A DNA stretch of 64,000 bases from contig JBMOPU010000012.1 in the NCBI GenBank assembly GCA_049322955.1, positions 886,186 to 950,185 of the forward strand, written 5' to 3'. Origin of the DNA: Patescibacteria group bacterium (GTDB taxonomy: Bacteria; Patescibacteriota; Microgenomatia; UBA10105; UBA927). This document shows positions 1-48,848 of this stretch, piece after piece (position 1 is the stretch's first letter; each line of letters opens with the position of its first letter). Both the position numbers and the translations under genes were made by a program. The notes under the pieces were generated by a model that was given only the letters and a program-made list of their open reading frames with translations, made no database searches and was not told the DNA's origin.

Positions 1-656
1 GGTCGTGGACAAAATATTAAATAGAATATTATCGCTGTTGCGACGGTAAGAATAACGCCTCCATACAAGGGTGAACTAAATCCTAATCCTCCGTTAAAGA
101 AAACAGTGATTAACGCAATAGAAATTGCAGAAGGGAGAATTGAGCCATGACCTTCTAATATAGGCAGGATATATTTCATAAATAACGGCAGAGCGACATA
201 CACAGAAAAAGTAGTTGCGGCACCAAGCTTCCATAGCTCTAATAAAAAATAATTAATTCCGTAAAAAAAAGCTGCAATGAGGGGAAAATATCGATATGGA
301 AAAAGTTTATTAATTGATCGTGCAAATAAATAAATCGAAAGTAGTATCGCAAAAAACCAGAAGATAAAAGTTAAACGTTGAGCGTCGGTTATAGATAATC
401 CTAAATAGCTACCGAAGGCAAGAACGGTGTGAATGAATAATGAGCCAAAATGCATTGAGGTTTCTTGACCAAGACTATCGACATGTGTCCAGGCAAAAAA
501 ACGATTGAGATAGGTACTCTGTATGTTAATCGGATAAGCCGCGTCATTTCCCGTTACATATTGCCCCGGACCGATCCAAATAAGAGGAATTAAACTGACA
601 ATGAACAGGAGAAATAGGTCTACAAAGAGAGGAGAATTTTTAAAAACTCTACTCAT
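1..656 (-). CDS. polytopic membrane protein, N-terminal portion; the gene runs off the window start (GT-C-like, uncharacterised)
   Basis: I translated the minus strand by hand from ATG at 656..654 down to position 3 and found no stop (MSRVFKNSPLFVDLFLLFIVSLIPLIWIGPGQYVTGNDAAYP...). There are several hydrophobic helices. The ORF is absent from the ORF track because its stop lies outside the window. Its ATG overlaps the stop of the 653..1279 gene as ATGA. Confidence 0.5.
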   Translation of the reverse strand, partial: MSRVFKNSPLFVDLFLLFIVSLIPLIWIGPGQYVTGNDAAYPINIQSTYLNRFFAWTHVDSLGQETSMHFGSLFIHTVLAFGSYLGLSITDAQRLTFIFWFFAILLSIYLFARSINKLFPYRYFPLIAAFFYGINYFLLELWKLGAATTFSVYVALPLFMKYILPILEGHGSILPSAISIALITVFFNGGLGFSSPLYGGVILTVATAIIFYLIFCPR

Positions 657-1279
657 ACTTTTTTAACCGCAAATAAATCAAAGCATATGGATGGAACGCG
701 AAAAAAAATAACTTCCGAAATAAGCGAAATGAAGCCCCAAAAAAAATACGGTTTATGTCTGATACCCGCATGCTCCGTTCGTAATATTTTTAACCCTCTA
801 AGACCGTATACGACATATCCTAATTTAGTCAAATCACTAATTACCCAACCTGATTTATGAACCTGATACGGATTACCGTCGTACGCTTCTTGTTCATAAA
901 AACCATTTGGTGTTAATAGAATAATTTTTTTTCTGGCTATTTTCTCCATGGATTTAATCATTTTGATTGCCTCGCTCTTTTCAAGATGCTCGATGACATC
1001 AATTGATACAACCGCATCAAAACTCTTATTTTTATAATAATTTCCTAATCTACGTATATCCCCTAACTTATAAGAGTCGTGAAGCTTTCTTTTTTTACTT
1101 AGCTGCAGAGTTTTAGGATATATTTCGATGCCTTCACTTATAAATGTTTTACGAATATGCCCTATTGCGGAATTATATCCGCACCCCACATCCAAAACAG
1201 TTTTACAACCTCGCAGATGCCATTCAAGGCATTTAAAGAAAAAAATATTTTGAATATAGACGATAAAATTACGCAGCAT
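653..1279 (-). CDS. class I SAM-dependent methyltransferase
   Basis: Motif I VLDVGCGYN and a D-acidic motif II (AVVSIDVIEH) fit the Methyltransf_11/23 type. Length 208 aa. Confidence 0.75.
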   Translation of the reverse strand: MLRNFIVYIQNIFFFKCLEWHLRGCKTVLDVGCGYNSAIGHIRKTFISEGIEIYPKTLQLSKKRKLHDSYKLGDIRRLGNYYKNKSFDAVVSIDVIEHLEKSEAIKMIKSMEKIARKKIILLTPNGFYEQEAYDGNPYQVHKSGWVISDLTKLGYVVYGLRGLKILRTEHAGIRHKPYFFWGFISLISEVIFFRVPSICFDLFAVKKV

Positions 1280-2543
1280 AATTGCTCATGATGAAAAAAG
1301 CATTGGCGAATGTTCTTTCCCAGGTCGCATTCTTTGCATAATCATATGCACGACTTCTCATTTGTATATAACGTTTTCTATCAGATAGCAATGAAATCAC
1401 GGCGTTGCTGAACTCTCTAATGGTATCATTAACAACGAGGGCACCGCCATACTCAGCTACTTCTTTGCCTAACGGGGGGACTTTTGAGGAGATAACGGGT
1501 AGTCCGGCCGCACAGTACGCACGAATTTTACCAGCATCGGCATAAAACCTTATTGAACCTGGAAAAGATCGGTAGGGCGCAACTCCAAGCGCGCATTCAC
1601 GAAGCAAACTTGCCATTTTCGCTCCATCGGGTACATATCCGTAAAATTTAATATTTTTTTCTAAGTGAAGTTCTGCGACTAGTGATTGAAGTACGGGCAA
1701 TCGCTCCCCACCACCTATAATCCGCAACGTCGCTGTAGGGATTGCTTTTCGGATCTTTTGCATTGCGCGAATGATAAGATCTGGGCCATTCTCTTCACCC
1801 AAGGTCCCCATATAAACTAAGGCATGCTTTTTAATTTTAGTAATTTTTAAGGATTGAATTTGTGTAGCTAATAGACCGTTCGGAACATGAATGACCGGAG
1901 CTGATCTTACTGCGTTAAGCCCTGCAGAAATACGTGCCGGCTGCATAGCTTTCGAGACATCCCATATGTAATCCGAATGCATAGCCGCAAACCGATCAAG
2001 AACTAGATAAACCCGGTTAAAAAGTTTGTTGGCATACCGGTTTGGAGAATAATCCGATACGTAGTAGACGACCGTCTTCACCCTGCCGATGAAACGTAGG
2101 AGAATGCCCGCGATTGCATTGACGCTCTCAAGACCGATAAAGTAGTCAAAGCGGGTACTATCCCGAAATGCCCAATCGATCACCGACAGGAAATCCCGTA
2201 TCTTGAACGGCACCTGGGTGGCGTTGCTGTTGGTGAGCCGTAAAAACGGCGAAAGTATTCCGTACCACCAACCCATTTTATGAGAAATATATTTTTTGTT
2301 TCCGTCGTTGTATTCCTCGATTTTGTACGATATATCCTCTTCGCCCGGAACCAGCTGATCGAGTAAGACTAATTTTTTCACCCGGGGAAGCAAAAAATCA
2401 CGGAGCGGCTCGACGCTTCCGTTGGTCGGCATTCGTTTGCCGTTAGACCAGAGGGAAAAGGTCGCAAAAAAAACGGTACTGTCGGGAGAAAGGGTAAAGT
2501 TACGTACGTTTTTCATGCTGGACCCGAAGTTTTGCTTCTTCAA
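1269..2543 (-). CDS. glycosyltransferase family 4 (GT-B, Glycos_transf_1)
   Basis: C-terminal GT4 signature: VYMGTLGEENGPDLIIRAMQKI ... LRIIGGGERLPVLQSLV ... KFYGYVPD. Confidence 0.8.
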   Translation of the reverse strand: MKKQNFGSSMKNVRNFTLSPDSTVFFATFSLWSNGKRMPTNGSVEPLRDFLLPRVKKLVLLDQLVPGEEDISYKIEEYNDGNKKYISHKMGWWYGILSPFLRLTNSNATQVPFKIRDFLSVIDWAFRDSTRFDYFIGLESVNAIAGILLRFIGRVKTVVYYVSDYSPNRYANKLFNRVYLVLDRFAAMHSDYIWDVSKAMQPARISAGLNAVRSAPVIHVPNGLLATQIQSLKITKIKKHALVYMGTLGEENGPDLIIRAMQKIRKAIPTATLRIIGGGERLPVLQSLVAELHLEKNIKFYGYVPDGAKMASLLRECALGVAPYRSFPGSIRFYADAGKIRAYCAAGLPVISSKVPPLGKEVAEYGGALVVNDTIREFSNAVISLLSDRKRYIQMRSRAYDYAKNATWERTFANAFFIMSNYAA

Positions 2544-3324
2544 CCATCGCGGCTATCCCCTCCCGCAACTCGATTGAGGGAAGCCAGCCGGGAACCCTGC
2601 CGCAGTTGGGTGAAGCGATAGGATCGTGTCCCTTTTTGGTACCAGGAATCACCTTCGCGTTTGTCATGTCGGCGATCAAATTGGCAACATCAATGATACG
2701 TACCCATTCGTAACTGCTGGCGTCATAGACGGTTCGTCGCGGCTTTTTTTCGTTGAGCGCCATATAGAATGCGTTGGATAAGTCGGTAATATGTGTGAAC
2801 TGCCGCCATTCCTCGCCGTCGGTCATCATGGTGATCTTTTTTGTTTTTAGAGCCTGGTAGATAAAATCTGAGATCACGTGACTTTTGATATCCTCCCCTT
2901 CCATATAACCGTAGGCATTCCAGACCCGAACACAGACGCCGTTTAACAACCCCGTCCATACTTCTCCTAAGCGCTTGGTCACACCGTAGACCGTGTCCAC
3001 TTCCTCGGACAACTGGCTGGAAACAAACAAAAAGGGTTTTTTTGCCTTCTCCACCTGATCAAAAACATTTTTCATCAGGGCAAGATTCCAATCGAGCTGA
3101 TTTTTCTGAAGCTTCGGCACATAAAGATACTTACTCCCGCCGACATCCCACGCCAAAAAATAGACTTTATCAACTTTCGCCAGCGGGAGCTTGGCAAACC
3201 GCGCATCTTCCTTTTTTCCTCGCTTCACATCGAATCGTATTACCTTTTCGCCTTTCGCCTCCAAAAATCGGCAAAACGGCGTGCCGATAAATCCATCCGA
3301 ACCGATAACGAGATTGGTCTGCAT
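2500..3324 (-). CDS. NAD(P)-dependent sugar-nucleotide epimerase/reductase (short SDR)
   Basis: N-terminal Rossmann motif VIGSDGFIGTPF and a YxxxK catalytic motif (YGVTK). Length 274 aa. It sits directly downstream of the GME-like gene. Confidence 0.65.
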   Translation of the reverse strand: MQTNLVIGSDGFIGTPFCRFLEAKGEKVIRFDVKRGKKEDARFAKLPLAKVDKVYFLAWDVGGSKYLYVPKLQKNQLDWNLALMKNVFDQVEKAKKPFLFVSSQLSEEVDTVYGVTKRLGEVWTGLLNGVCVRVWNAYGYMEGEDIKSHVISDFIYQALKTKKITMMTDGEEWRQFTHITDLSNAFYMALNEKKPRRTVYDASSYEWVRIIDVANLIADMTNAKVIPGTKKGHDPIASPNCGRVPGWLPSIELREGIAAMVEEAKLRVQHEKRT

Positions 3325-3332
3325 ACAAGGAA

Positions 3333-4328
3333 TTATTTATCTTTGCGGTTATGACGCACCTGTTCGTTGATCCATACGTAGGTCTGGGCGAGACCGTCAT
3401 AGAGCTTGGTCGAAGGTGCCCAGCCGAGCTTCTTTTTGATGAGGCGATTATCAGATGATCTCCCGCGAACACCTAACGGTCCTTTAATGTGTTTAATCTT
3501 TAACTTTTTGCCGGCGATCTTCATCACCATTTCGGCCAGTTCATTAATACTCACCATTTCTTCGGATCCGATGTTGACCGGACCTTCAAAATCACTGTCC
3601 ATGAGCTTGCGTACTCCGTTTAAACACTCGTCGATATACAGGTATGACCGCGTCTGTTTCCCGTCCCCCCACATTTCGATGGTGCCGCCGTCTTTTGCCT
3701 GCGCAACCTTCCGACACATGGCGGCGGGTGATTTTTCCTTTCCGTTATTCCAACTTCCCTCGGGACCGAATATGTTATGGAATCGCGCGATGTGCACTTC
3801 CATACCGTAGTTACGCTTATACGCAAGATACATCCGTTCGCCGAAGATTTTCTCCCACCCGTATTCACTATCGGGTGCGGCGGGATATGCGGAAGATTCC
3901 TCGCAATTGGGGTTATTGGGATCCATCTGATTCCGTTCCGGATATATGCAGGCCGATGAGGAGAAAAAGATTTTCTTTATTTTGGCAAGTCTTCCGTAAT
4001 GCAGTGCATTGAGATTTATTTGTGCCGAATTATGCATGACGTCGGCATCATGATCTCCCGTAAAGATATATCCTGCGCCCCCCATATCGGCCGCCAATTG
4101 ATACACCTCATCAAACGGCAAGTTAAAGACTTTCTGACAAAATTTCTGATCACGAAGATCGCCGAGCAGGAACTCGTCAGCAGGACTTTTGCTGTATTCG
4201 TGACGTTTGATGTCTGCTCCCCGCACCCAATAGCCTTCAGCCTTCAGTCGCTTTACCATATGACCGCCGATAAAGCCTCCTGCACCGCACACTAACGCTA
4301 TTTTATGATTTCGTGATATTTTTTTCAT
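3333..4328 (-). CDS. GDP-mannose 3,5-epimerase-like enzyme (GME family, extended SDR)
   Basis: Rossmann motif VCGAGGFIGGH. Conserved blocks match plant GME as I recall it: LAADMGGAGYI, FSSSACIYPE, YGWEK (YxxxK), RFHNIFGPEGSW, GKEKSPAAMCRK, MWGDGKQTRSY, IDECLNGV, PVNIGSEEMVSINELAEMV, GVRGRSSDNRLIKKKLGWAP. Confidence 0.8.
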   Translation of the reverse strand: MKKISRNHKIALVCGAGGFIGGHMVKRLKAEGYWVRGADIKRHEYSKSPADEFLLGDLRDQKFCQKVFNLPFDEVYQLAADMGGAGYIFTGDHDADVMHNSAQINLNALHYGRLAKIKKIFFSSSACIYPERNQMDPNNPNCEESSAYPAAPDSEYGWEKIFGERMYLAYKRNYGMEVHIARFHNIFGPEGSWNNGKEKSPAAMCRKVAQAKDGGTIEMWGDGKQTRSYLYIDECLNGVRKLMDSDFEGPVNIGSEEMVSINELAEMVMKIAGKKLKIKHIKGPLGVRGRSSDNRLIKKKLGWAPSTKLYDGLAQTYVWINEQVRHNRKDK

Positions 4329-4344: not shown

Positions 4345-6360
4345 TTACTCTCGCGAATAATTATTTATTTTGATTATTATACATATTCCGGCAAAAATTA
4401 CCCATGCCAGGATGAGCAGGGGGCCTACAACGGATTGAGGAACATATCTTACAGTTGCAACTCCATGAACTCCTTTCGGAATCGTATATTCCTGCAAACC
4501 GTCGGGTGTTCGCTTTGGTTTCAATTCGATATCTTGCACTGAAAGCATCCAATACGGATTGTATGTCTCTGAAAAAATGATTGAAGCATCGCTATCACGC
4601 TCTGGTAGTACTAATGAGTATTCAGCTGGGGATATCATCGATACCGAAATTGATTGATTTGGCTGATCCACAAAAAAAGCATGGCCAAACGATATCGATG
4701 TACGCCAAATTGAAATACCGTCTATACGATCGTATCTTTCATAACGACGTGTTTCGTCAATGGCATTAATTATTGACTGCCGAGCATTATTATCCGGTTT
4801 TCCGTCTTTTACAAAAAGTTCATGTTCTACATCACTCGGAACAACAATATACTTGACTCCGTATCGTGCCAGCTGTTTATCATTTCCCTCTTCGGTGATC
4901 CAGGGAATAAACGCAGAGGTGCTGGCAATAGACAGTGTCTCTAATGAGATTGCTCGCTTGTTATCATCATAGTAACCGTATCTACTTCTGGTTGGAACCC
5001 ACAGAACCCGTGCAAAACCGTTATCCTCTCTCAGAAAATCCTTTAGTAAGACATATTCATTGGGTACTTTACCTGGAACTAATGTGCCGCGTATCCCGCC
5101 GGCATAAAAATCTCTGAAAGCGAACAACAGTAGACTCAACAATAAAGCAAAAAACCCCGTGCGAAGGTATATAAACAGTTTTTTATGTTTGATTGCGCGC
5201 ATAACAGCATCATTACTACGTTCTAACGTGTAGGCAATAAGCACCGTATAGGAGATTGAAATGAGAACATAAAATTTTGTCGGATCACGAAACATAACAA
5301 ATCCGGGAACATGCACGAACATCCACTCATAAAGAGATCCGAAAGGTTGATTAACCCCTTTTGCTAAAAATGCTCCAATGAGTCCCATAAAAGCGAAGAA
5401 CAAAATTTTTATTTTTTTCTCACGATCTTCCTTACCAAGGAACAACAGGGAACTGAAGGCAAGAATGGGAAATACAAGAAATTCGGGTCGTAAAAATGAC
5501 ATTTTTCCGAAGATATTTTCCGGCCAATTCGGATGAAGCAATGACATGGTATGAGATTGGTCTGCGAAACTGAAAAAGCGAAGCGCATCGGAAGATAAAT
5601 ATACCGGGCTCAACAAGGTATCGATGGGCGTTCGGTAAATAATTAACGGGAGGATCCAATACGCATGCAACCCGAAAATTATGAGGCCGGCACCGGTCCC
5701 GACTAACATGAGCCTAATATATACAACTTTCTTTACTCCTTTATTCAAAAAAACAAATACAATATAGGGCACAATTGCCATTACGGTGATATAAAAAATT
5801 CGCGCGTCAAACATAAGCTGAATGGCACCTATGACACCGACTAAACAGGTGGTGCGTACCAACTTGATAGATTCTCTATGGAGCAGATCCACAAGATGCA
5901 TGCTGAGATGAATAACAAGTGGTGCTATCGCAATTGCCCAAATCACTCCCATTTGTCCTCCTGAGAGAACCATAATAAAGTGCGTATTTATCACATACAG
6001 AATTCCCAGGAAAGAGAAGCGCGCCCTGACTAGGGACTGGGTAAGCCTGATGCTTGAAAATAATGCGATGATGATAAGCGGGATAAACCACACGATTCTC
6101 TCCGTAAATTCCCACGGAAGAGACATATTGGAAGCTATCCGGGCGGTGATAATGTACCACGTATCAAGAGGGGCCAATATCATTTTCCCCCCGCCCAATC
6201 CGTTTCCAAAATAGGTTGACCATGAAACCACCCATGGGTTCATGGAGCTGGAAAGCTCGACAAATCTGTATCCCCAATCGCCTGATGAAAGCGTACCGCT
6301 GATTCCCCATCGAACAAATATCGGGAGCAGTAACGTCATTGACAAGAATACGAAGATCAT
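4345..6360 (-). CDS. large polytopic membrane protein with YfhO-type C-terminal module (GT-C-like)
   Basis: Many TM helices followed by a C-terminal soluble domain ending YNPYWMLSVQD...IPKGVHGVATVRYVPQS and a final TM anchor. This is the same module seen in the YfhO-like proteins of the window. Sequence is AT-rich. Confidence 0.5.
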   Translation of the reverse strand: MIFVFLSMTLLLPIFVRWGISGTLSSGDWGYRFVELSSSMNPWVVSWSTYFGNGLGGGKMILAPLDTWYIITARIASNMSLPWEFTERIVWFIPLIIIALFSSIRLTQSLVRARFSFLGILYVINTHFIMVLSGGQMGVIWAIAIAPLVIHLSMHLVDLLHRESIKLVRTTCLVGVIGAIQLMFDARIFYITVMAIVPYIVFVFLNKGVKKVVYIRLMLVGTGAGLIIFGLHAYWILPLIIYRTPIDTLLSPVYLSSDALRFFSFADQSHTMSLLHPNWPENIFGKMSFLRPEFLVFPILAFSSLLFLGKEDREKKIKILFFAFMGLIGAFLAKGVNQPFGSLYEWMFVHVPGFVMFRDPTKFYVLISISYTVLIAYTLERSNDAVMRAIKHKKLFIYLRTGFFALLLSLLLFAFRDFYAGGIRGTLVPGKVPNEYVLLKDFLREDNGFARVLWVPTRSRYGYYDDNKRAISLETLSIASTSAFIPWITEEGNDKQLARYGVKYIVVPSDVEHELFVKDGKPDNNARQSIINAIDETRRYERYDRIDGISIWRTSISFGHAFFVDQPNQSISVSMISPAEYSLVLPERDSDASIIFSETYNPYWMLSVQDIELKPKRTPDGLQEYTIPKGVHGVATVRYVPQSVVGPLLILAWVIFAGICIIIKINNYSRE

Positions 6361-6371
6361 AATTATTTAAG

Positions 6372-7424
6372 CTACGATTGCCCTAGCTTTCGTACAATTT
6401 TTCTCAACGGTGAAATTATTCTTGATAATCTTGCTCTTATACTACTTCCGTTGTATTCCCATATGTACGCGCATAGGGCAAGTGCGATGAAATAATAAGT
6501 CCAAACTGCATACCCTTCGGCGATATCAATTTTGTTGAGTGCCACGTATACGGTCGAAAGCATATACATGGCCAAACCTACGATAAAATAGGCACTTCCG
6601 CCGATATTAAACTTTACGATTACAAAAAATAGAGTGGCAAGCTTAAAATATAGCTCTGCTTCATATCCCATTTCCTGTAGCGGTACATATACTGAACTAT
6701 ATATCCGATACGCAATAAACACTATTAATGTTGCGGTTACATACCTGTTGTTCATTATTTTCCATATCAAATACAACAGTGTCGGCAGAAGATATAAAAG
6801 AATATAGGAATAAAACTCCACGTCCTGTGATAGATTTTCAATTTTTATCTTAAAGTATTTCATAAATGTCTCTAAATCTTTCAAGGGATGTATCTTGTCT
6901 ACACGATATTTTGTTAAAAAGGCGACAGTATCAAAATGCACCTGTATACCTTCCCCTTTCGTATATTCGCTTTCAAGCGTAACGGTGTATCGTATATTTT
7001 TAGATTCAATAATCGTTGGAAATCCTAGAGGGTAAAAATTTCCCCCGTAAAGGACACGCATGTCATAGTGTCCCGTAAATAACAGTTCGCCCGTGTCCTG
7101 ATTCATTAATTTGAAAGTAATTACCCCTTCTGGATCTTCTTTAGGTAACTTGAAACGCAGTGCAATCGTTCCGAGGTTATTCATCTGGGATGTGAAACTG
7201 AACTGCACGGTTCCCGGGTTGGGCAAAGTTACATATTCATTCTCTTCTACATTTTTCTGATGATAAAAATTCAAGGAAAAAAAGCTTGCTCCCGGATAAT
7301 TAACAATCCCGTATAAAAATCCGATAAGCGCCAATATGCACGGAATAATGATCCAGGCAACACTTACCTTTAGAAGATGGTAAAGCTTAAAATATTGTTT
7401 TTTTTCCATGGAAGATTTCTTCAT
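6372..7424 (-). CDS. membrane protein with N-terminal anchor, ~200-aa extracytoplasmic domain and C-terminal TM bundle
   Basis: One TM, then a hydrophilic beta-rich stretch, then 4-5 TM helices. An A8 tract lies at codons 7-9 (coords 7398..7405). Function unknown. Confidence 0.45.
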   Translation of the reverse strand: MKKSSMEKKQYFKLYHLLKVSVAWIIIPCILALIGFLYGIVNYPGASFFSLNFYHQKNVEENEYVTLPNPGTVQFSFTSQMNNLGTIALRFKLPKEDPEGVITFKLMNQDTGELLFTGHYDMRVLYGGNFYPLGFPTIIESKNIRYTVTLESEYTKGEGIQVHFDTVAFLTKYRVDKIHPLKDLETFMKYFKIKIENLSQDVEFYSYILLYLLPTLLYLIWKIMNNRYVTATLIVFIAYRIYSSVYVPLQEMGYEAELYFKLATLFFVIVKFNIGGSAYFIVGLAMYMLSTVYVALNKIDIAEGYAVWTYYFIALALCAYIWEYNGSSIRARLSRIISPLRKIVRKLGQS

Positions 7425-7433
7425 ACACTCCGC

Positions 7434-9668
7434 TTAATTGACACTTTTTCCCTTTTTTTGTACATAGCCAGCGTAAAGTACCAATGCGATAGAGATAATG
7501 TAACCCGTTATGCTTATGAAATTACCTATATTCTGCAGTCGCTTCGGCTCAAAAATTATTTTTAATTTTATGGGCTGGTCGCCACCTTCATATCCCCGTA
7601 TATTTCGCATTTGCGCCGTATCGATCTTCCATGCATTAGCGTAGTCATACACTCTCGTATTCATTCCCGTCATATACGGTATTGTATATTTGCCCTGTTT
7701 GTCCTCCAGGTAGATCCGCCAGGTTCGGTAATATGGCTCAAGCAATACCATATATTGGACTTTATCCGCATTATTTATTGTGACAGTATATTCCCCTTCA
7801 TTATTCTTAACATACGAAAAATTATCGTTAAGTTGAACTTCAGAGAGTGAAGCGGTGAGATAAAGGACATCAGTAATATATGCGGGATTGATTTCATATA
7901 ATTCATATCGATCGCCGAAACTGGCAATAACGTTTCCGGTCATATGATTGATAAATTCATCATCCTGTAGCGTATCCAATTTATTCGAACCCCATAACCA
8001 GAGCGCATAGTTTGCAGAAGATGCAGGAAGCCGCTGTTTGTTTACGATAATGTATCGAATACCCAACTCCTGAAATATTTTTCCCACTGCTTCATAATTC
8101 CTTTCTTTTATATTCTTGATAATTGTTTGGGCAATCCCCGGACGGGACGGTATATCGAAGCTTAGCTCTCCCGTGTAATCTATTTTATTTGTTAATGGGG
8201 TAATAATTGACGGTCCGCTATAGAAATGATTCGGTAGTTTTCCGTCTTCAATATAGATATATGATGGAAAAGTAAGAGGTAACCATACGAAATGCGCTCC
8301 CGTATCCATATTTTTTAGATAACGAACCATATCATTAAAATCCTGATTCAAAGTTCCTGAAATTTTTGTGGAAAACTGCTCACTTCTATGTTGTGGAAAT
8401 AGAAAGTTAAATCCTGAATAGACGGTGAGCACAATAATTGCGCATGCAAAAAATACGGCCAATTTCTTGTGCAGGTTTCCGATAATCCAAAGACTCCATG
8501 AGAGAAGGAATGCGTACTGAAATGCTAATGGTAGCGCAAATTTATCATACGAGGTTTTGAACATTGCGAATAATGGCACATATGAGTTGAGCAGTAAAAA
8601 TAATTTAAGGCTCCAAACATCTATATTTGGAGTAAATAAAATTACGGTAAATAAAAATGAAAAAATGCTCAATAAATAGATGGTTCTCCTATTATTTCTC
8701 TTTAGTCGGGCAAAGAGTATGCCTCCCAAAAGCACCGGCCAAAGATAGAGTGAATTCAGTGGATTAAATACGATATTCATTCCCCATCCTGTTCGTTCCT
8801 GTTGAAAAAACTGCGCTAAAATTGGATTGAGATGTGAGATCGCCGCAATATAATTTGCGTTCGCACGCGAGGCCGCCTTCAACGAATCAAATGATAACGC
8901 GGCAGATGAGCCAGCTTCAGTAATCAATTGAGAAGCAATTAGATGTATTATCCAGTGCGTGTTAAGTACAAGAAATGAGCATAAAAATATTGACGTAATT
9001 TTGATAAACACTAACGGTTTCCTTTTAAATTCTAAAAAAAGCAATGGAAGAACAGAAAAAAAGAATGCCCCATACCATGGAAGAGTTATGAGAGTCGCAC
9101 TTACTGCTGAATATATCAATGCACATAAGACGGGAAGAATATACCGCTCCTCCCGAACAGATATAATAAACAAATAGAGAAGCAACGGACACACGCTAAC
9201 TGCGAAAATAGACATGAGCTCATGGGTGTATAGCGTAGTGATGACAAAATTTGATAATACATAAGATAGTGCTGCGGCTATTTTAAATACCCAGCCGAAT
9301 CCAGATGCATCTGCTTTCAATTTGCCCATCAGAAGATAGAAAAACACAAATCCTGCTGCCAAATTAACTCCGTACATGGCAAATTGCACATTATGCCAGG
9401 GAATAAGCGATATTATCCAGATAAATATATAAAAGGGAGTTAAAAATGCTGGCGATGCATAAACACCGTACGTACCGAGTCTGTTTTGCGTAATAATGGA
9501 AGATGAATAGTGTTCAAAAAACGGTTTTGGCATAACATAATACAATCGCGTATCATCCCCACCGACATGATATAGTTGACCCCAAAAGAGCAAAGGAATT
9601 AAAAAAAGCGTAACGGCGATGAATGCCACTGCATATTTTGACAGAAAATTAAATATTACTTTTTTCAT
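7434..9668 (-). CDS. large polytopic membrane protein (GT-C-like) with C-terminal extracytoplasmic domain and TM anchor
   Basis: 744 aa. About 430 aa of TM helices with an early loop motif HVGGDDTRLYY, then a ~300-aa soluble domain containing YYRTWRIYLEDKQG, then a terminal TM. Confidence 0.5.
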   Translation of the reverse strand: MKKVIFNFLSKYAVAFIAVTLFLIPLLFWGQLYHVGGDDTRLYYVMPKPFFEHYSSSIITQNRLGTYGVYASPAFLTPFYIFIWIISLIPWHNVQFAMYGVNLAAGFVFFYLLMGKLKADASGFGWVFKIAAALSYVLSNFVITTLYTHELMSIFAVSVCPLLLYLFIISVREERYILPVLCALIYSAVSATLITLPWYGAFFFSVLPLLFLEFKRKPLVFIKITSIFLCSFLVLNTHWIIHLIASQLITEAGSSAALSFDSLKAASRANANYIAAISHLNPILAQFFQQERTGWGMNIVFNPLNSLYLWPVLLGGILFARLKRNNRRTIYLLSIFSFLFTVILFTPNIDVWSLKLFLLLNSYVPLFAMFKTSYDKFALPLAFQYAFLLSWSLWIIGNLHKKLAVFFACAIIVLTVYSGFNFLFPQHRSEQFSTKISGTLNQDFNDMVRYLKNMDTGAHFVWLPLTFPSYIYIEDGKLPNHFYSGPSIITPLTNKIDYTGELSFDIPSRPGIAQTIIKNIKERNYEAVGKIFQELGIRYIIVNKQRLPASSANYALWLWGSNKLDTLQDDEFINHMTGNVIASFGDRYELYEINPAYITDVLYLTASLSEVQLNDNFSYVKNNEGEYTVTINNADKVQYMVLLEPYYRTWRIYLEDKQGKYTIPYMTGMNTRVYDYANAWKIDTAQMRNIRGYEGGDQPIKLKIIFEPKRLQNIGNFISITGYIISIALVLYAGYVQKKGKSVN

Positions 9669-10823
9669 ATGTTCCTGTTAGAGCTGATGCACTTTGGGAA
9701 TGCAAAAGCACGCTTCGCATTAACCCAAAAGCCCAGCAAAGAACTGCTATCCAGACAATATTCCAGGAAAATAGATGCAGCCAATGTATACCGAATTCAT
9801 CTTTATTTCCCAAAAGAAATAATGTCGTAGCAAGCGTATATACAATCAGCCACAACTTTGATTCTGTCCAGGAAAATGCAAGAGGTAATACAAAATATTG
9901 CGCACTTATCCCGGTCGTGGTCGCTAAAAAGATAACCAACGAATGCCCCATGCTCCGCCAACTATCCTTACGCTTAGCCAAATACATGGCAATGAGGACA
10001 TTCACCACTACAGTTGCCGCAGTCAAGGCTATATATATCATACGTACGCCACCTGATGTCCCTCCAACAGAAGACTCCATGGTAAGCGTTTGTGAGTGCG
10101 CAAGCATCCGATAAACTGATGTAAGAAAAAAAGACACACCATATTGTCCCGGTATGCCACCATAAAAAAATACTTGCGTCACTATTTCCCTCCATGCGCT
10201 GACATAAGGAAGGAATGACATGAAAAAAATAATCATTGTCGTGGCAATTCTGAGGAAACCTTTTTTACACCCCAATGACTAAAAAACAGAATAAGAAGAG
10301 GAAAAAGAACGATGTGCTTGGTCAAAAGCGCCATTGTACCGAGCAGCCATGCGATAAACGGTAATTTTTTTTGAAAACTTAGCCAAGAAAGAATAAGAAA
10401 AAGAATGGCAAAATTATCGAATTGCCCGTGCTTAGAAGAAATAATCATCGATATGGGATTAAGAAAGTAGAAGAGAAGCGGGTGAAATATTGAAATCTTC
10501 CTCGTTCGGGCAATGTGTGTTAATACAACTAAGGTAACTACATCAACTACCGACAAAAAAAGTCTGATAAATACTGCAAACGGTACGCTCGGGAATATGT
10601 TAGTGCGTATCTGATCCAAGGTTCCCAATATATAAAACCATACAGGGGTATAATTATACGCGGATTGAGCTGAATATATGTTTTCTCCCTGATGGAAAAT
10701 CTCGACATCTTTAAGATAGTTCGTTATATCGACGTTATATGGCAGTGTGGAGAACCATGCTCGAAGGATAATCCCTGAAAGGAGCAAAATGACATATATA
10801 CCATGAAAGAATTTCGCATTCAT
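9649..10823 (-). pseudogene. polytopic membrane protein split by a +1/-1 frameshift at an A6/T6 tract (pseudogene, phase-off variant or sequencing error)
   Basis: Two overlapping minus-strand ORFs (10233..10823 and 9649..10275) are in different frames and both are all-TM. Shifting at the tract 10261..10266 joins ...FFSHWGVKK to GFLRIATTMIIFF..., giving a continuous ~400-aa membrane protein. Confidence 0.45.
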
Positions 10824-10827
10824 ATGG

Positions 10828-12441
10828 CTATTTTTCCATATATTTACCCACAGTCGATTTTAGAGTTTTGTTGTTCCAGTTTAACTTGACAACCTGCGCA
10901 TCAACAGTCAAAAGCTCTGCATCAAGATAAGATTTTTCTGAAAGATAAAATCTAAAACCGATCTTTCCATGCTCATAATATCCCTCACTCCCCCAATTCC
11001 ATAAATCCTCGGCTTTAAAAAAGCTATCATATCTATATATATTTGAATTAACCACCATAGCCACATATCCGACACCTGAGTAGAGAGGGGGTAAATCTCC
11101 GGTATTTACGATAATTGTTTTTGAACTCGTATACTTGCTGGCTTGTTGCAAGGCTTGCACATAACTTGCCATCGGTCTTGCAATGTTAAGAGCGTGATTG
11201 ATATCTTTATGAAAAAAAATAGTATTTCTAAGAATAATAAATGAGAACACCACATAAATTATAATTGACTTAGAGCTATATTTCTCCAATAAAGATCTAA
11301 CTAGCGCACCAAATAATAAAGATAAGAAAATTGCCGAAATATAATAGTGACGAGATTCAAGTCGTAGACTTGTAGGTAATAAAATATACGGCACTGCTGT
11401 TACTAATACTGAAAGTAAAGTAAAGCGAATAAAGTTTTTATCGATTAATTTCTGAAATAACAAGAACGCACCCATCCCAATTCCAATAACCGGACCAACG
11501 ATATAAAAAGATATAAATTCATTAAAAATATCCGCGTTAAGTATAAAACCATATGGAATAATCTTTGTCGAGAGCACAGTGTTTCCGATAAATTTTCCTA
11601 GGAATACTTTATCGTGATCATTTATGAGTAATGATGCCAGCATGGAAGCAGGCATAACGATTGAATTTTTAATAACATTTTGTAAATCGATGCCGCCAAT
11701 GTGTAGTTCTGAAACATTTTGAAAATAGAGGTAAATACTTCCAAAACGCAAAATCAGATATAAAGATATAAAAATAGCTGAGGTTGTAAATTTTTTGACA
11801 TTTCGAGATATGATAAGTTCATACAATGCAATTATTATCACAGCGACTATTACATCTTCTTTGAACAAAAGACCAACGAAGAGCGATATATATGCAACCG
11901 TAAAACCCCAGGATATTTTTCTTTCATAATTCGCATAGATTAGCAGACCGCTAAGTAACAAGAAGGTTGAAGGTAACCCAACCAACGATGCTGCATACCA
12001 AGTGATAGTTTGACTAGCTTGCGAAAATGTTAAAAAAAATAACGCAGAATAAAAGGATATTACTTTTGTAAAAAAACGTCTCGATAAAAAATACACCAAT
12101 AAAACATTAGCAATAGAGAATATATATGTAAAAATGAAGTATGGAAGCGTGTGTAGTTGAAATTGCTTATAAACGTAATAATAGGTGAACCATGACAGAG
12201 GTACAAAATGATAACTAAATGGTTTTATCAGACAAACGAGCCCGCAATCCCTAACTGATAACACCTTTCCAAAAAGGTACCACTCATCTGCTTGAAAATA
12301 TAATCCTTTAAGAGGTACAAATAAAGCCAACGAAATAAGTATTAAAATGCCAATCAGAAGAATATCTGATTTCAGCATATTTGCTTTTACTCTGCTTGCG
12401 AATTTGGACATATTGACTCGCACCAAGGCATATTTCCGCAT
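10828..12441 (-). CDS. polytopic membrane protein (GT-C-like), uncharacterised
   Basis: 537 aa. About 11 TM helices, then a C-terminal ~150-aa soluble domain. AT-rich. Confidence 0.5.
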   Translation of the reverse strand: MRKYALVRVNMSKFASRVKANMLKSDILLIGILILISLALFVPLKGLYFQADEWYLFGKVLSVRDCGLVCLIKPFSYHFVPLSWFTYYYVYKQFQLHTLPYFIFTYIFSIANVLLVYFLSRRFFTKVISFYSALFFLTFSQASQTITWYAASLVGLPSTFLLLSGLLIYANYERKISWGFTVAYISLFVGLLFKEDVIVAVIIIALYELIISRNVKKFTTSAIFISLYLILRFGSIYLYFQNVSELHIGGIDLQNVIKNSIVMPASMLASLLINDHDKVFLGKFIGNTVLSTKIIPYGFILNADIFNEFISFYIVGPVIGIGMGAFLLFQKLIDKNFIRFTLLSVLVTAVPYILLPTSLRLESRHYYISAIFLSLLFGALVRSLLEKYSSKSIIIYVVFSFIILRNTIFFHKDINHALNIARPMASYVQALQQASKYTSSKTIIVNTGDLPPLYSGVGYVAMVVNSNIYRYDSFFKAEDLWNWGSEGYYEHGKIGFRFYLSEKSYLDAELLTVDAQVVKLNWNNKTLKSTVGKYMEK

Positions 12442-12464
12442 AGTATGTATCAGATTTACTGAGA

Positions 12465-34450: not shown

Positions 34451-34459
34451 ACTCAGTAG

Positions 34460-37346: not shown

Positions 37347-37381
37347 TGTACTAAATCAACTTATGCTTGACCATTGAGGGA

Positions 37382-38893: not shown

Positions 38894-38936
38894 TCTGCTC
38901 GTATTCTTGTTATAATGCCAATAGCCTCGTACCTAT
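38894..38936 (+). promoter_or_regulatory. divergent intergenic region with extended -10 (TGnTATAAT) for the plus-strand block
   Basis: TG at 38908-38909, TATAAT at 38911-38916, about 20 nt upstream of ATG 38937. This is the only strand-switch spacer in the window. Confidence 0.35.
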
Positions 38937-44552: not shown

Positions 44553-44553
44553 T

Positions 44554-46217: not shown

Positions 46218-47936
46218 TTATTTACCGGATCGTTGTTTCGGAAGTTTTTCTATGTAGCCTAATGACAGAAGTTTTTCGAGTATTTCTTTCTCGTATCGCT
46301 TATCGAAATTAAACGAGGCATCAAGATCAAAGTTCTGGGTTTTCCCGAGTTTCCATTTGTACTCTACATCGGGAAGCGTCCCGTTTAACGTAAATAATCT
46401 GAAATAATTGGCATCCAAAAATTCCGTCATCCACCAGTTGTAGGTTTTGGGATCGCCTCCCCATGGGGCAAAATCGCGCTGGAAGACGATAAGCTTTGGC
46501 CGGGTCTTGTTAAGATCGGCCAAAAGTTCATCCTTAATCTTATTCTTTGCCGCATGATCCAAAAACCAATGATACTTACTCGGTTGTTTTTTGGAGGTCA
46601 GGTAAAACAATTCCTCAAATTCAAACGGTCCGATATAGACATAATCCGACGGGTCGACGATCGCGTTGACATAGTGAGCTATCTGCGGACGGCTATAAAT
46701 AAGGGGCGCAGTCCCCATATACTTCGGAAAAAATTTCTGTTCCATTTTCATGACAAAATAAAGCGGCGTCGCTATCCAATACAACAGCAGTGCCGCATAC
46801 AATCCTCCCAGGGCAAGTTTTTTGGAAAATGCGATATGTTCCTCATCGATAAGTTCCCTGACGGCCCAAAGGGAAAATAATCCGTTGAAAAACGATGTGA
46901 TGATATAGACAAACGCCTGATAATCGGTTTCCCGAATTGACTGGGGATTACTCCTGGCATTGGAAAACACCAGCACGGTCAGAAGCGGAATAAGAAAAAG
47001 GAATCGCTTTCGTACGAGAACCAATACAATCGCCGCGGCGGATGAAAACGCAATGGTCACCTGGACCGGATTGCCGAGCGGGAAATCTTTTGCTCCCCAT
47101 ACCGCAAGAATATAGTTATTGATAAACGTGTCAAAAATAACCGCCGCATAACGGATCGGGTTAATGGGAGCACCGGGTGCATGCGGATAATTATAAATAT
47201 AATAGTTGGTGTTATACACGACATTCGCCCAGTAATAATCCGCAACACTTCCCGTAAGCACAAGATATGCGCCAAACAGCAGATACGGGGCGGCAAGAAG
47301 CGAAACTCCCGTGAGGATGCGGGGAAACACCGGTTGCTTCCCTCGTGCCGTCACAAAAAGATACAGCGCATACAGGGAAATCGCGGCAACGATAAAGATG
47401 TAGGTCATGGAGGTGAACCAGGAAAGAAACGCAAACCATCCCACGATCATGAGGTCCTCTTTTTCGAACTTTTCACCGTAGTAATCTTTAAGAAACAACA
47501 GGGCAAACGAGGGCAAAATGAAGTAGCCTGCCAGCGTGTCGGCAAGCAACATGTGCCCCCAAAAATACGTTCCCGATACTCCGATCACAAAAAGCAGGAC
47601 GACATAAAACGAGAGATTGCGTTTGGGGAGCCGTGATTTGATAAGAAAATACGACCCGATGAGCAACATAGACAGAACGATTTCCCATCCCACGCGAAAC
47701 TTCACAAACGATTGACCGCTAAACGGCAAAATGGTCGCCGCCATGACATAGGCGCCGGGCTGGTGATGTTGAAACCAATCACGATACGGAAGTTTTCCTT
47801 CGGTGATATAGCGACCGCCGACGATGCTGTCGAACTCGTCGGGATATTTTTCATGGAATGCGTTGGTGACGAAAACCGCAAGAAGCAGAAGAAAAACGGC
47901 AACGGTTGCCCAGTATTTTTTTACCCAATGCATCAT
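46218..47936 (-). CDS. polytopic membrane protein, distant ArnT/PMT-like GT-C
   Basis: YPDEFDSIVGGRYITEGKLPYRDWF DE-aromatic loop motif after TM1, about 12 TM helices, and a C-terminal soluble domain. Confidence 0.5.
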   Translation of the reverse strand: MMHWVKKYWATVAVFLLLLAVFVTNAFHEKYPDEFDSIVGGRYITEGKLPYRDWFQHHQPGAYVMAATILPFSGQSFVKFRVGWEIVLSMLLIGSYFLIKSRLPKRNLSFYVVLLFVIGVSGTYFWGHMLLADTLAGYFILPSFALLFLKDYYGEKFEKEDLMIVGWFAFLSWFTSMTYIFIVAAISLYALYLFVTARGKQPVFPRILTGVSLLAAPYLLFGAYLVLTGSVADYYWANVVYNTNYYIYNYPHAPGAPINPIRYAAVIFDTFINNYILAVWGAKDFPLGNPVQVTIAFSSAAAIVLVLVRKRFLFLIPLLTVLVFSNARSNPQSIRETDYQAFVYIITSFFNGLFSLWAVRELIDEEHIAFSKKLALGGLYAALLLYWIATPLYFVMKMEQKFFPKYMGTAPLIYSRPQIAHYVNAIVDPSDYVYIGPFEFEELFYLTSKKQPSKYHWFLDHAAKNKIKDELLADLNKTRPKLIVFQRDFAPWGGDPKTYNWWMTEFLDANYFRLFTLNGTLPDVEYKWKLGKTQNFDLDASFNFDKRYEKEILEKLLSLGYIEKLPKQRSGK

Positions 47937-47969
47937 ATAAATTCCTTACGCTATCATATCACACGCCCG

Positions 47970-48848
47970 TCACGATTCCCGAACCGATGATTTCCGAGCG
48001 AGGATGACCATGTTATCTTTCATGGGCACATAGAGCGGAAACCGCATCAGAATTGTTTTCCTGACCACGTCATACACAAAACGCGCCAAAAAGCTTTCCC
48101 CGGTAGTTCGTGCCAGATGTAACACATACCCCAAACTCAACCATTTCCCGACCCTGTGCCATTGAAACGGCGTCAACCCCGATTTGGTGAGGAGTGTTGT
48201 CACGTTTTTCCGGTTAAAAAAGAAAATATGTTGCGGCGGGATAAAAAACGTCCAGCGGCGTTTCATTACTTTTGCGGCTATACTTTGCGTATCGCCCGTC
48301 GCGATGATGATAATGCCGTCGGGTTTAAGATATGAGGTAAGTTTTTTGACGTCGGAAAGAGGGTCCTCAAGATGTTCGAAAACATCAAACATCGTAATGA
48401 CGTCAAAACTCGCTTTGGGGTATTTCACCTCGGCAATTGTCCCTTCTTTGATGCGTGCTTTCCCGACCAGGGCTCCCGCTTTTTGTACGGCAAAGGATGA
48501 AGGATCAAAGCCGTAGGCATCGTATCCTTTTTGCAACGCGAGTTCCACGACGTACCCGAACGCGCACCCGACATCGAGAAGTTTTCCGGTCGGTTTCTTT
48601 TCCGCGACAAAGGAAAGAAACTTTTGCATGTTTTTGGTGATCAGGGGTTTATCGAGCTCGTAATCGGCATATGCGCTTCTTGTGGGGTCACCTTCGTAAT
48701 AGCCCTGCGAATAGAATTCTTTTACAAATGCCGAGTAATCTCGCTTTAAGTCGGTTTCGGCAAGGTGACACCTTCCGCAACGGTAGAGCCAATATCCGTT
48801 CTTATAGAGATATTTATCAAGCGTGGTTTTGCAAAGGAGGCATTGCAT
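47970..48848 (-). CDS. SAM-dependent methyltransferase with N-terminal zinc-ribbon (sugar C/O-methyltransferase-like architecture)
   Basis: CLLCKT...CGRCH ribbon, then LLDVGCAFGYVVE (motif I) and FDVITMFDVFEH. Confidence 0.75.
   Translation of the reverse strand: MQCLLCKTTLDKYLYKNGYWLYRCGRCHLAETDLKRDYSAFVKEFYSQGYYEGDPTRSAYADYELDKPLITKNMQKFLSFVAEKKPTGKLLDVGCAFGYVVELALQKGYDAYGFDPSSFAVQKAGALVGKARIKEGTIAEVKYPKASFDVITMFDVFEHLEDPLSDVKKLTSYLKPDGIIIIATGDTQSIAAKVMKRRWTFFIPPQHIFFFNRKNVTTLLTKSGLTPFQWHRVGKWLSLGYVLHLARTTGESFLARFVYDVVRKTILMRFPLYVPMKDNMVILARKSSVRES

Follow-up and report, generated by a model that had tools for sequence, protein, structure and literature searches.

Four putative glycan-tailoring methyltransferases in a 64-kb glycosylation locus of a Patescibacterium

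The 64-kb stretch of DNA analyzed here as a whole, referred to below as the window, comes from an uncultured, Microgenomates-like Patescibacterium (CPR); homologues of its genes carry the name Gottesmanbacteria. A Pfam scan of about 52 major ORFs identified it as a glycosylation island, in which glycosylation genes make up nearly the whole content: about ten GT2 and five GT4 glycosyltransferases, four NDP-sugar epimerases/dehydratases, a Wzx-like flippase (positions 57929-59380), and about 20 GT-C-like membrane proteins. One of the GT2 proteins (GT2_236) most closely resembles AglJ (117 bits, below threshold). No window ORF matched a nucleotidyltransferase or an aminotransferase (DegT_DnrJ_EryC1), and the sugar pathways therefore cannot be reconstructed from the window. 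Four genes for class I SAM methyltransferases, here called MT1 to MT4, lie on the minus strand exactly where an earlier note on this DNA had placed them and, as it had stated, are surrounded by glycosyltransferase genes, which belong to the GT2, GT4, and GT-C types (Table 1). No further methyltransferases were found among the major ORFs scanned.

Table 1. Methyltransferase genes of the window, their zinc ribbons, and their neighbors
Feature	Positions	Strand	Basis
Multi-pass membrane protein, N-terminal part, leaves window at left end	1..656	-	Translation, junction sequence
MT1, minimal class I SAM methyltransferase, 208 aa, hydrophobic C-terminal tail	653..1279	-	Pfam Methyltransf_11, 37 bits, 4e-9
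GT4 upstream of MT1	1269..2516	-	Pfam Glycos_transf_1, 7e-21
Pair of NDP-sugar epimerase/reductase genes, MT1 cassette	2500..4328	-	Pfam Epimerase
Low-GC (33-45%) variable cassette containing MT2	4345..17314	-	Per-gene GC content; comparison with L028
GT2 downstream of MT2	12465..13508	-	True ATG at 13508 overlaps MT2 stop (ATGA)
MT2, Zn ribbon and class I SAM methyltransferase, 292 aa	13505..14383	-	Pfam Methyltransf_25/11, 45-46 bits
MT2 Zn ribbon, residues 10-30, CPSC...CGRC	14294..14356	-	Conserved Cys
GT4 partner upstream of MT2	14380..15540	-	Stop overlaps MT2 start (ATGA)
GT4 downstream of MT3, 12-nt gap	17311..18414	-	Pfam, junction sequence
MT3, class I SAM methyltransferase without Zn ribbon, 260 aa	18427..19209	-	Pfam Methyltransf_23, 83 bits, 2.5e-23
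dTDP-glucose-4,6-dehydratase-like gene upstream of MT3, 12-nt gap	19222..20247	-	Pfam GDP_Man_Dehyd/Epimerase
572-aa protein, about 8 TM segments, no Pfam match, conserved downstream partner of MT4	46218..47936	-	
MT4, Zn ribbon, class I SAM methyltransferase, and family-specific C-terminal extension, 292 aa	47970..48848	-	Pfam Methyltransf_23, 96 bits, 2e-27
MT4 Zn ribbon, residues 3-27, CLLC...CGRC	48768..48842	-	Conserved Cys
GT2 upstream partner of MT4, 5-nt gap	48854..49774	-	Pfam

All four proteins pass the Pfam gathering thresholds for class I methyltransferase domains (Methyltransf_11, 25, or 23). Their translations contain the motif I loop of the D/E-x-G-x-G/A-x-G-like form (LDVGCGYN in MT1, LDAACGQG in MT2, LEVGCGTG in MT3, and LDVGCAFG in MT4) and the acidic residue that closes strand 2, and these motif residues are invariant within the MT2 and MT4 family alignments. 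Pairwise identity among the four is 24-31% and confined to the Rossmann core; judged by this comparison, they are not recent paralogues, and each belongs to its own subfamily and its own conserved gene cassette. A housekeeping rRNA, tRNA, or ubiquinone assignment, which the earlier note had regarded as incompatible with its proposal, was obtained for none of them: the NCBIfam equivalog models for UbiG/UbiE, RlmA, CmoM/CmoB, PrmA, and PrmC all stay below their cut-offs, the best score being that of UbiG on MT3 (59 bits versus 103), while CmoM reaches 51 bits versus 366 on MT2. The proposed translational coupling of each methyltransferase to GT2 or GT4 genes through ATGA overlaps holds for MT2, which shares one ATGA with the upstream GT4 and another with the downstream GT2, but not for the others. 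The ATGA of MT1 is shared with the start codon of the downstream membrane protein, and the stop of the upstream GT4 lies 11 nt inside MT1; MT3 is separated from its neighbors by 12 nt on either side, and MT4 by 5 and 33 nt.

The cassette comprising two epimerases, GT4, MT1, and the large membrane protein is kept at 52-77% identity in four other loci (L019, L020, L021, and L028), in the last two of which the membrane protein is 1153-1159 aa long. The second epimerase is similar to GDP-L-fucose synthase (GDPFucSynFcl, 116 bits), although below the NCBIfam cut-off of 500. Homologues of MT1 range from Gottesmanbacteria to Chloroflexota and one Micrarchaeota archaeon, and GT2, GT4, or dehydratase genes mostly adjoin them; for the Dojkabacteria locus L025 no annotated neighbor was recovered.

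MT2 lies in a variable low-GC region. Mapped by BLAST onto the relative L028, its flanks reach 67-90% identity, GT2_278 no more than 34%, and the remainder is missing; a non-orthologous GT2, a PglD-like acetyltransferase, and a DegT aminotransferase stand there instead. The CxxC...CxxC ribbons reported earlier for MT2 and MT4 were confirmed by conservation. In MT2 the knuckles are CPSC (residues 10-13) and CGRC (residues 27-30), numbered as in the full translation (family alignment numbers are one lower, the start codon being trimmed), and all four cysteines are invariant in 13 homologues of 43-100% identity. The designation of this ribbon as Trm112-like was not borne out: Trm112p (PF03966) scores 20.9 bits against a gathering cut-off of 22 and matches at E<=0.01 in only three of the 13 family members. 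Altogether 14 homologues of MT2 were found, of which those at 43-47% identity are always located directly downstream of a GT4 gene within sugar-modification clusters; the GT4-MT2 pair is kept in three loci (L007, L008, and L009). The AF2 model of MT2 (pLDDT 85) has as its top Foldseek matches the sugar 4'-O-methyltransferases AtmM and RebM (TMq 0.57-0.60, E ~1e-12 to 1e-13).

MT3 sits in a dehydratase/GT2/GT4 backbone, where the dehydratase-like gene scores 187 bits versus a cut-off of 365 with the NCBIfam model dTDP_gluc_dehyt. By sequence, TylM1 and DesVI, which dimethylate the amino group of dTDP-aminosugars, are its nearest relatives of solved structure (E 1e-11); the TylM1 alignment spans only the SAM-binding core, residues 6-143, and falls short of full-length similarity. 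Homologues of MT3 are found in glycan loci beside DegT aminotransferases or GT2 genes, and at 39-44% identity the gene overlaps that of a DegT aminotransferase. In L028 an aminotransferase is encoded three genes downstream of MT3 together with an acetyltransferase, a pairing that suggests N-acetylation rather than N-methylation. In L029 MT3 adjoins not a dehydratase but a GT2 similar to polyprenyl-P-sugar synthases.

The cassette of GT2, MT4, and the 572-aa membrane protein lies within a YfhO/PMT_2 block. Orthologues of the membrane protein show 52-55% identity in L014 and L017, GT2 still precedes MT4 in homologues as distant as 55% identity (in L014 the two genes overlap by 4 nt), and the wider context GT2-GT2-YfhO-GT4-YfhO-GT2-MT4-(YfhO)-membrane protein is preserved at 55-59%. 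The MT4 family numbers 1,425 cluster representatives at E<=1e-30 and includes natural fusions to GT2 (four cases), to an RmlD-like epimerase, and to GtrA_DPMS_TM; the fused GT2 domains of P0288 and P0339 are nearest to polyprenyl-phosphate sugar synthases such as AglJ, ArnC, PpgS, and PgfS, all below threshold. Within the ribbon (CLLC, residues 3-6; CGRC, residues 24-27), 32 homologues of 55-100% identity share C6, C24, and C27 without exception, and C3 is nearly invariant (at least 90%).

The evidence on the earlier assignment of this ribbon to a Methyltransf_13-like domain is divided. Pfam detects neither Methyltransf_13 (PF08421) nor Methyltransf_14 (PF08484) in any of the 32 MT4-family members; profile-profile and fold comparison nevertheless link MT4 to TcaB9-type enzymes. 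The best whole-length fold matches of its AF2 model (pLDDT 91) are the NDP-sugar C3-methyltransferases TcaB9, KijD1, and MtmC, and hhalign relates it to Methyltransf_13/23/14 proteins of 402-426 aa with a probability of 97.6%. This alignment extends from the second knuckle, which is matched to a CxxC of the Methyltransf_13-bearing proteins, to the catalytic His motif, and stops at template position 251 of 421. In it, P205, Q206, and H207 of MT4 stand opposite the invariant H-E-H of those proteins, and Pro204 opposite the Tyr/Cys before it; the Y-x-E-H motif of the TcaB9 active site consists of Tyr222/Glu224/His225. MT4 also has C-terminal motifs of its own: GKWLS..Y.LHLA.T, which is invariant, and P.Y.P, which is nearly so and precedes an invariant DN. 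By these profile and fold comparisons MT4 is related to TcaB9-type NDP-sugar C-methyltransferases but truncated at the C-terminus. Phosphoethanolamine and lipid methyltransferases also occur among its top structural matches, an observation that counts against a sugar role.

In the unrelated genomes examined, homologues of the four enzymes are located by glycosyltransferase, NDP-sugar epimerase, or aminotransferase genes, L025 aside. Synteny kept in such distant genomes shows that the association of the methyltransferases with glycosylation genes is not a coincidence, and together with the domain fusions in the MT4 family it supports the link to a carbohydrate pathway suggested before. The gene neighborhood evidence is circumstantial, which counts on the other side, as does the lack of nucleotidyltransferase and aminotransferase genes in the window. 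We consider it probable that MT1 to MT4 are cytoplasmic tailoring methyltransferases of a very large locus for the assembly of a cell-envelope glycan or glycoconjugate, and their likeliest role is to methylate sugars ahead of export. Because SAM is confined to the cytoplasm and all four proteins lack a signal peptide, methylation must take place on the cytoplasmic face. We infer that the acceptors are nucleotide-activated sugars, or else sugars and oligosaccharides linked to polyprenyl phosphate, the atom methylated and the stage of methylation being likewise predictions. Methylation would precede flipping by the Wzx-like protein, after which the many GT-C-type enzymes may carry out the transfer.

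A more specific form of this explanation, fixing both the stage and the chemistry, is that at least one of the enzymes, especially the TcaB9-like MT4 or the TylM1-like MT3, acts, as in deoxysugar pathways, on a nucleotide-activated sugar that has yet to be transferred, and methylates either a carbon of a 4-keto-6-deoxy intermediate or the nitrogen of an amino sugar. It is a possibility that we hold only tentatively. For MT4 it is suggested by the hhalign match, by His207, which aligns with the catalytic His in YHEH, and by the fusion of an RmlD-like epimerase/reductase to a family member; however, MT4 lacks the C-terminal domain (292 versus about 410 aa), has Pro and Gln for the Tyr and Glu of the motif, and belongs to a family in which Pfam finds neither Methyltransf_13 nor Methyltransf_14 (32 members). 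For MT3 the relationship to TylM1 and DesVI, the overlap of its homologues with DegT genes, and the 4,6-dehydratase-like gene directly before it point the same way, whereas the confinement of the TylM1 match to the core and the different neighbor in L029 do not, and the lack of an aminotransferase in the window means that MT3 has no local amino-sugar substrate.

The earlier note had also offered methyl groups as chain-termination signals. On this reading a methyl at the non-reducing end would halt elongation of the polymer and label the glycan for export, as happens with WbdD in E. coli O8/O9a or in S-layer glycans with 2-O- and 3-O-methyl caps. Methyltransferases are known to cap glycans with a terminal methyl during assembly on polyprenol (PMC3482155; PMC3560663), and the adjoining GT2 and GT4 genes could serve as polymerases. 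The known systems depend on an ABC transporter, with the cap recognized by the export machinery, but the approximately 52 window ORFs gave no match to an ABC transporter (ABC_tran, ABC2_membrane), a kinase, or a coiled-coil ruler, and the locus encodes Wzx-like flippases and GT-C enzymes instead; moreover, WbdD is absent from the sequence and fold matches of the methyltransferases. Capping is thus unlikely here. Even less can be said for the four genes being passengers of the locus that act on RNA, small molecules, lipid head groups, or proteins (e.g., pilins or surface proteins that await export), a reading that we regard as very improbable. The class I fold is generic, the top structural matches include phosphoethanolamine N-methyltransferases, BioC, UbiG, and RlmA(I), and no family-specific NCBIfam model names a sugar methyltransferase. 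Against this are the synteny with glycosyltransferase genes kept by all four families across distant lineages, the fusions of MT4 homologues with GT2, epimerase, and GtrA domains, and the housekeeping scores, all far below their cut-offs. UbiG or UbiE roles are further disfavored by the general lack of quinone biosynthesis in Patescibacteria.

A role in glycan tailoring can be compared with several known systems. TcaB9, KijD1, and MtmC (Methyltransf_13, 23, and 14) share with MT4 the order of an N-terminal four-Cys ribbon and a Methyltransf_23-type SAM domain, but are about 120 aa longer, carry the C-terminal Methyltransf_14 domain, for which MT4 has no Pfam match, and are only 13-15% identical to it; Y-H-E-H has become P-P-Q-H, only the His being kept, and no 4-keto-sugar pathway is evident beside MT4. 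RebM and AtmM, class I enzymes working on a sugar already joined to its acceptor, resemble MT2 in fold, at an identity of only 15-16% and with other natural-product methyltransferases scoring nearly as high; they lack an N-terminal Zn ribbon, and their substrates are indolocarbazole glycosides rather than cell-surface glycans. TylM1 and DesVI, which dimethylate dTDP-3-amino-3,6-dideoxyhexoses, recall the pairing of distant MT3 homologues with DegT aminotransferases, although they match MT3 in the core only and the sugar aminotransferase is missing from the window. The terminating kinase-methyltransferase WbdD of E. coli O9a is likewise of class I and modifies, at the cytoplasmic membrane, a glycan linked to polyprenol (PMC3482155), but its kinase and coiled-coil domains, phosphate methylation, and ABC transporter partner are features not seen here. 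AglP, the SAM methyltransferase of Haloferax volcanii N-glycosylation, is likewise encoded in a glycosylation cluster, a likeness of gene setting; the present host is a bacterium, and the window gave no match to an STT3/AglB-type oligosaccharyltransferase. The mycofactocin proteins MftF and MftM form a pair of a GT2 and an oligosaccharide methyltransferase, as occurs in the window, but NCBIfam scores are far under the cut-offs (MftF, 70 bits versus 280 for GT2_306; MftM, 38, 22, and 21 bits versus 200 for MT2, MT1, and MT4) and no mycofactocin genes are present. In glycan loci, methyltransferases of this sort are a normal feature; they do not represent a novel type of system.

The window encodes four class I methyltransferases, all intact; two have a conserved Zn ribbon, and each of the four lies in a conserved glycosylation cassette. 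Our ORF listing reproduced exactly the four minus-strand genes claimed by the earlier note (MT1 to MT4, numbered by coordinate); all four products were assigned to the class I SAM-dependent methyltransferases at the Pfam gathering thresholds, and all retain SAM-binding motif I. Since their mutual identity is 24-31% and confined to the Rossmann core, they are not recent paralogues or duplicates. No fifth methyltransferase was found among the ~52 major ORFs scanned in the window. Neither the four proteins nor their neighbours reached a curated NCBIfam cut-off; MT1-MT4 were nowhere near the cut-offs of the UbiG/UbiE, rRNA, tRNA and protein methyltransferase equivalogs, and the link to carbohydrates that the earlier note expected a confident rRNA, tRNA or ubiquinone assignment to overturn stands in this respect. 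PDB sequence searches with the methyltransferases yielded generic class I similarity only, the match of MT3 to TylM1 being core-restricted.

Features of the window discussed in the text (window numbering)
Feature	Positions	Strand	Size	Remark
MT1	653-1279	-	208 aa	Pfam Methyltransf_11, 37 bits, above gathering threshold
MT2	13505-14383	-	292 aa	Pfam Methyltransf_25/11/23, 42-46 bits, above gathering thresholds
MT3	18427-19209	-	260 aa	Pfam Methyltransf_23, 83 bits, above gathering threshold
MT4	47970-48848	-	292 aa	Pfam Methyltransf_23, 96 bits, above gathering threshold
GT2_236	22300-23010			GT2 glycosyltransferase
GT2_260	59367-60149			GT2 glycosyltransferase
Membrane protein	25584-26723		379 aa	No Pfam match in window scan
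DUF5667 protein	26727-27260			
Dense GT-C-like regions	28000-46206, 49776-55471, 60088-63326			
Plus-strand block	38937-46206	+		Four genes, sole plus-strand block of the window
Candidate variable cassette	4345-17314		~13 kb	11 genes including MT2
Genes without counterpart in L028	4345-16481			
ORF calls with over-extended start codons	12465-13544, 1269-2543			
Overlapping ORF calls	20260-21216, 21053-22357			Overlap of 164 nt

The window is ~6% of its contig, which measures about 1 Mb, and forms a glycosylation super-locus devoted almost wholly to glycan assembly. It contains five GT4 and about ten GT2 genes, four NDP-sugar epimerase/dehydratase genes, one Polysacc_synt_3 (Wzx-like) flippase, and one DUF5667 protein. 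Of the multi-pass membrane proteins, about 20 in number, many match GT-C families (PMT_2, seven or eight genes; YfhO, three; PTPS_related, two; GT87). Several form paralogue arrays, namely five PMT_2 proteins (27-36% identity), three YfhO (29-31%) and five PTPS_related-like (25-32%). The GT-C-like proteins are extraordinarily dense in three regions, and for several additional multi-TM proteins Pfam gave no match. No ABC transporter, kinase, sugar aminotransferase or nucleotidyltransferase was detected by Pfam among the ~52 major ORFs, and the 64 kb gave no Pfam match to an initiating phosphoglycosyltransferase (Bac_transf or Glycos_transf_4) or to an STT3- or Wzy_C-type enzyme. A tRNA scan of the window for island boundaries found none.

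The 379-aa membrane protein has orthologues in the homologous loci L028 and L029 (52-54% identity) annotated as PF26314 MptA_B_family, a GT-C mannosyltransferase family of mycobacterial type. The adjacent DUF5667 protein is kept in the glycan loci of L010, L028 and L029, always adjoining a GT2 gene. GT2_236 and GT2_260 are most similar to polyprenyl-/dolichyl-phosphate hexose synthases (best models AglJ with 117 bits, Dol-P hexose transferase, ArnC and PpgS, all below threshold), and likely supply lipid-linked sugar donors to the GT-C enzymes.

All four methyltransferase genes lie inside tightly packed, same-strand, operon-like arrays. The earlier note had each of them coupled to GT2 or GT4 genes by ATGA overlaps; the junction sequences bear this out for MT2, but not for MT1, MT3 and MT4. 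The stop codon of the GT4 gene upstream of MT2 overlaps the MT2 start (ATGA), and the downstream GT2 gene, whose true ATG is at 13508 and whose product starts MKNTEKHPLVSVIIVNFN, overlaps in turn the stop codon of MT2. MT1 overlaps its upstream GT4 gene by 11 nt (ATGCTGCGTAA), and the ATGA at its stop codon is shared with the gene of a multi-pass membrane protein, which lies downstream and runs off the window. MT3 is separated by 12 nt on either side, and MT4 by 5 nt upstream and 33 nt downstream. Start-codon over-extension was seen in two ORF calls, and two other calls overlap (see the table); the GT2 of this overlapping pair has 318 aa in the window versus 267 aa in its L028 orthologue, so that translation probably begins further downstream than at the listed ATG.

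The CxxC...CxxC ribbons reported in the earlier note are present in MT2 (CPSC, residues 10-13; CGRC, residues 27-30) and MT4 (CLLC, residues 3-6; CGRC, residues 24-27). All four cysteines are invariant in 13 MT2 homologues down to 43% identity; among 32 MT4 homologues, the most distant at 55% identity, the first cysteine is nearly invariant and the other three are fully so. Both ribbons are therefore real features under selection. The Pfam labels proposed for them did not hold formally: Trm112p scored 20.9 bits with MT2 against a cut-off of 22 and matched 3 of the 13 family members, and Methyltransf_13 matched none of the 32 MT4-family members. The ribbons may have a structural role or serve as docking modules.

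The MT1 cassette, epimerase-epimerase-GT4-MT1-large membrane protein, is kept at 52-77% identity in four other loci (L019, L020, L021 and L028). Most of the more distant relatives (34-42% identity; Saccharibacteria, Chloroflexota and a Micrarchaeota archaeon) have GT2, GT4 or dehydratase genes on their flanks; at the Dojkabacteria locus L025 no annotated neighbours were recovered. The best solved relative of MT1 is 3cc8, and its hydrophobic C-terminal tail, seen in the translation, could be a membrane anchor. MT1-type cassettes also occur in MAG records titled 'uncultured Gammaproteobacteria bacterium', with the order epimerase-(epimerase)-GT4-MT1 and neighbours up to 84% identical to those of the window in L020 and L021, and with flanking GT2 genes in L026 and L027, which points to mislabelled bins or lateral transfer.

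The MT3 family is large (>7,000 matches). The L028 orthologue (8001-8783 of that locus) sits in the same backbone and is 60% identical, versus 72-90% for the flanking genes. The L029 homologue (57%; 8001-8810 of that locus) has a polyprenyl-P-sugar-synthase-like GT2 on one side and a Wzx-like gene on the other, having relocated to directly after the GT2_236 orthologue. MT3 evolves or changes place faster than the backbone does. In homologues of 39-44% identity the gene overlaps that of a DegT aminotransferase, and the best matches of MT3 among solved structures are TylM1 and DesVI (E 1e-11, MT3 residues 6-143 only).

MT2 is rare (14 homologues) and directly follows a GT4 gene with a Gtf3_C domain in three independent contigs, inside sugar-modification clusters. 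Locus L009 repeats the window cassette epimerase-GT4-GT2-epimerase-GT4-MT2-GT2, without MT3. The best fold matches of the MT2 AF2 model (pLDDT 85), in which a hydrophobic stretch is part of the predicted fold, are the sugar 4'-O-methyltransferases AtmM and RebM (TMq 0.57-0.60). Numerous natural-product methyltransferases match it as well, and RlmA(I) does so loosely.

Comparison with L028 separates MT2 from the other three genes. The flanks share 67-90% protein identity, GT2_278 only 34%, and a run of window genes has no counterpart in L028, which carries there a PglD-like acetyltransferase, a DegT aminotransferase and a non-orthologous GT2. The GC content of the 11-gene block is 33-45% versus about 50% elsewhere in the window, and no transposase, integrase or tRNA was found at its borders. 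The block has the look of a variable cassette of the serotype kind within a conserved glycan locus; its low GC content and its replacement in L028 suggest that MT2 rides on a horizontally exchangeable cassette. MT1, MT3 and MT4 are part of the conserved backbone.

MT4 has 466 homologues at 55-100% identity; relatives bear the name Candidatus Gottesmanbacteria. The order GT2-GT2-YfhO-GT4-YfhO-GT2-MT4-(YfhO)-membrane protein (~575 aa) with convergent PMT_2 genes is kept at 55-59% identity in Gottesmanbacteria GW2011_GWA2_47_9 and in other lineages, and in L014 the GT2/MT4 junction is a 4-nt overlap. A family HMM run against 1.84 billion cluster representatives found 1,425 at E<=1e-30, mostly full-length (~290 aa), so that the family comprises at least 1,425 clusters at 50% identity. 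Among the best matches are fusions of MT4-like domains to GT2 (P0288, P0293, P0339 and P0392), to an NAD-epimerase/RmlD-like domain (P0308) and to GtrA_DPMS_TM (P0282), as well as methyltransferase-methyltransferase tandems; the fusions link the family to GT2, epimerase and GtrA modules. The fused GT2 domains of P0288 and P0339, the two checked, are most like synthases of polyprenyl-phosphate sugars (AglJ, ArnC, PpgS and PgfS, all below threshold). They are not of the same type as GT2_306, the upstream neighbour of MT4, which looks EpsD/MftF-like; similarity is limited to the N-terminal GT-A motif (22-28% over 65-95 residues).

The best whole-length Foldseek matches of the MT4 AF2 model (pLDDT 91) are the NDP-sugar C3-methyltransferases TcaB9, KijD1 and MtmC (TMq 0.59-0.63, ~316 columns), the best E-value belonging to the uncharacterised 3cc8. 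The MT4 family aligned with three Methyltransf_13/23/14 proteins from L007 and L010 (hhalign probability 97.6%, E 4e-12) from the second CxxC knuckle to the invariant H-E-H of TcaB9-type proteins, which is aligned to P-Q-H207 of MT4. However, MT4 lacks their C-terminal Methyltransf_14 domain and has invariant C-terminal motifs of its own; it is therefore a truncated relative of the TcaB9 type and is not filed as a TcaB9-family member. The literature found on TcaB9 was a general review only. The MT4 family is large and uncharacterised; its ~290 aa combine a Zn ribbon and a SAM domain with a C-terminus specific to the family.

Because SAM is cytoplasmic and MT1-MT4 have no signal peptides, methylation must occur on the cytoplasmic face; its substrate would be a nucleotide-sugar, or else a sugar or oligosaccharide linked to polyprenyl phosphate, modified ahead of flipping and of use by GT-C enzymes. 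Nearby genes that resemble those of dTDP-glucose-4,6-dehydratase and GDP-fucose synthase (sub-threshold NCBIfam matches) suggest 6-deoxyhexoses, which are frequently O-methylated. For MT4 and MT3, precursor-level C- or N-methylation is plausible, although MT4 misses the C-domain and motif residues, and the window has no aminotransferase that would fit such a role of MT3. In a more speculative proposal, which we consider unlikely, NDP-sugar C-methyltransferases gave rise to the MT4 family, with loss of the nucleotide-sugar-binding C-domain, and the family methylates polyprenyl-P-linked sugars cytoplasmically; the GT-C enzymes of this locus (YfhO, PMT_2 and the 572-aa partner) would receive methylated lipid-linked donors and transfer the sugar outside the membrane. 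The fusions to polyprenyl-P-sugar-synthase-like GT2 and GtrA flippase-type domains and the conserved GT2-MT4-membrane protein module speak for it.

Substrates other than carbohydrates are highly improbable for these methyltransferases, being contradicted by the synteny and the fusions. The observation in the earlier note holds, and its interpretation, O-methylation of the glycan or chain termination, holds in part: a chain-terminating cap as in WbdD (PMC3482155) has little probability, as the window has no ABC transporter or kinase context.

Methyltransferases are commonplace in polysaccharide loci, and a polysaccharide or glycoconjugate locus with tailoring methyltransferases is an ordinary arrangement, here in an under-studied lineage; nothing found requires a new mechanism. 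Patescibacteria are uncultured, reduced-genome episymbionts, to our knowledge with an essentially unknown surface chemistry, and our literature search on glycan methylation in CPR, Patescibacteria or Gottesmanbacteria found nothing specific. That one locus carries four distinct tailoring methyltransferases, with MT2 on a low-GC variable cassette and MT4 in a core module that is widely conserved, is of use in predicting the chemistry of surface glycans and serotype-like variation between strains; for biochemical characterisation, the MT4 family is a sensible choice. As a functional analogy for lipid-linked methylation, AglP of the Haloferax Agl pathway (PMC3871713) comes closest.
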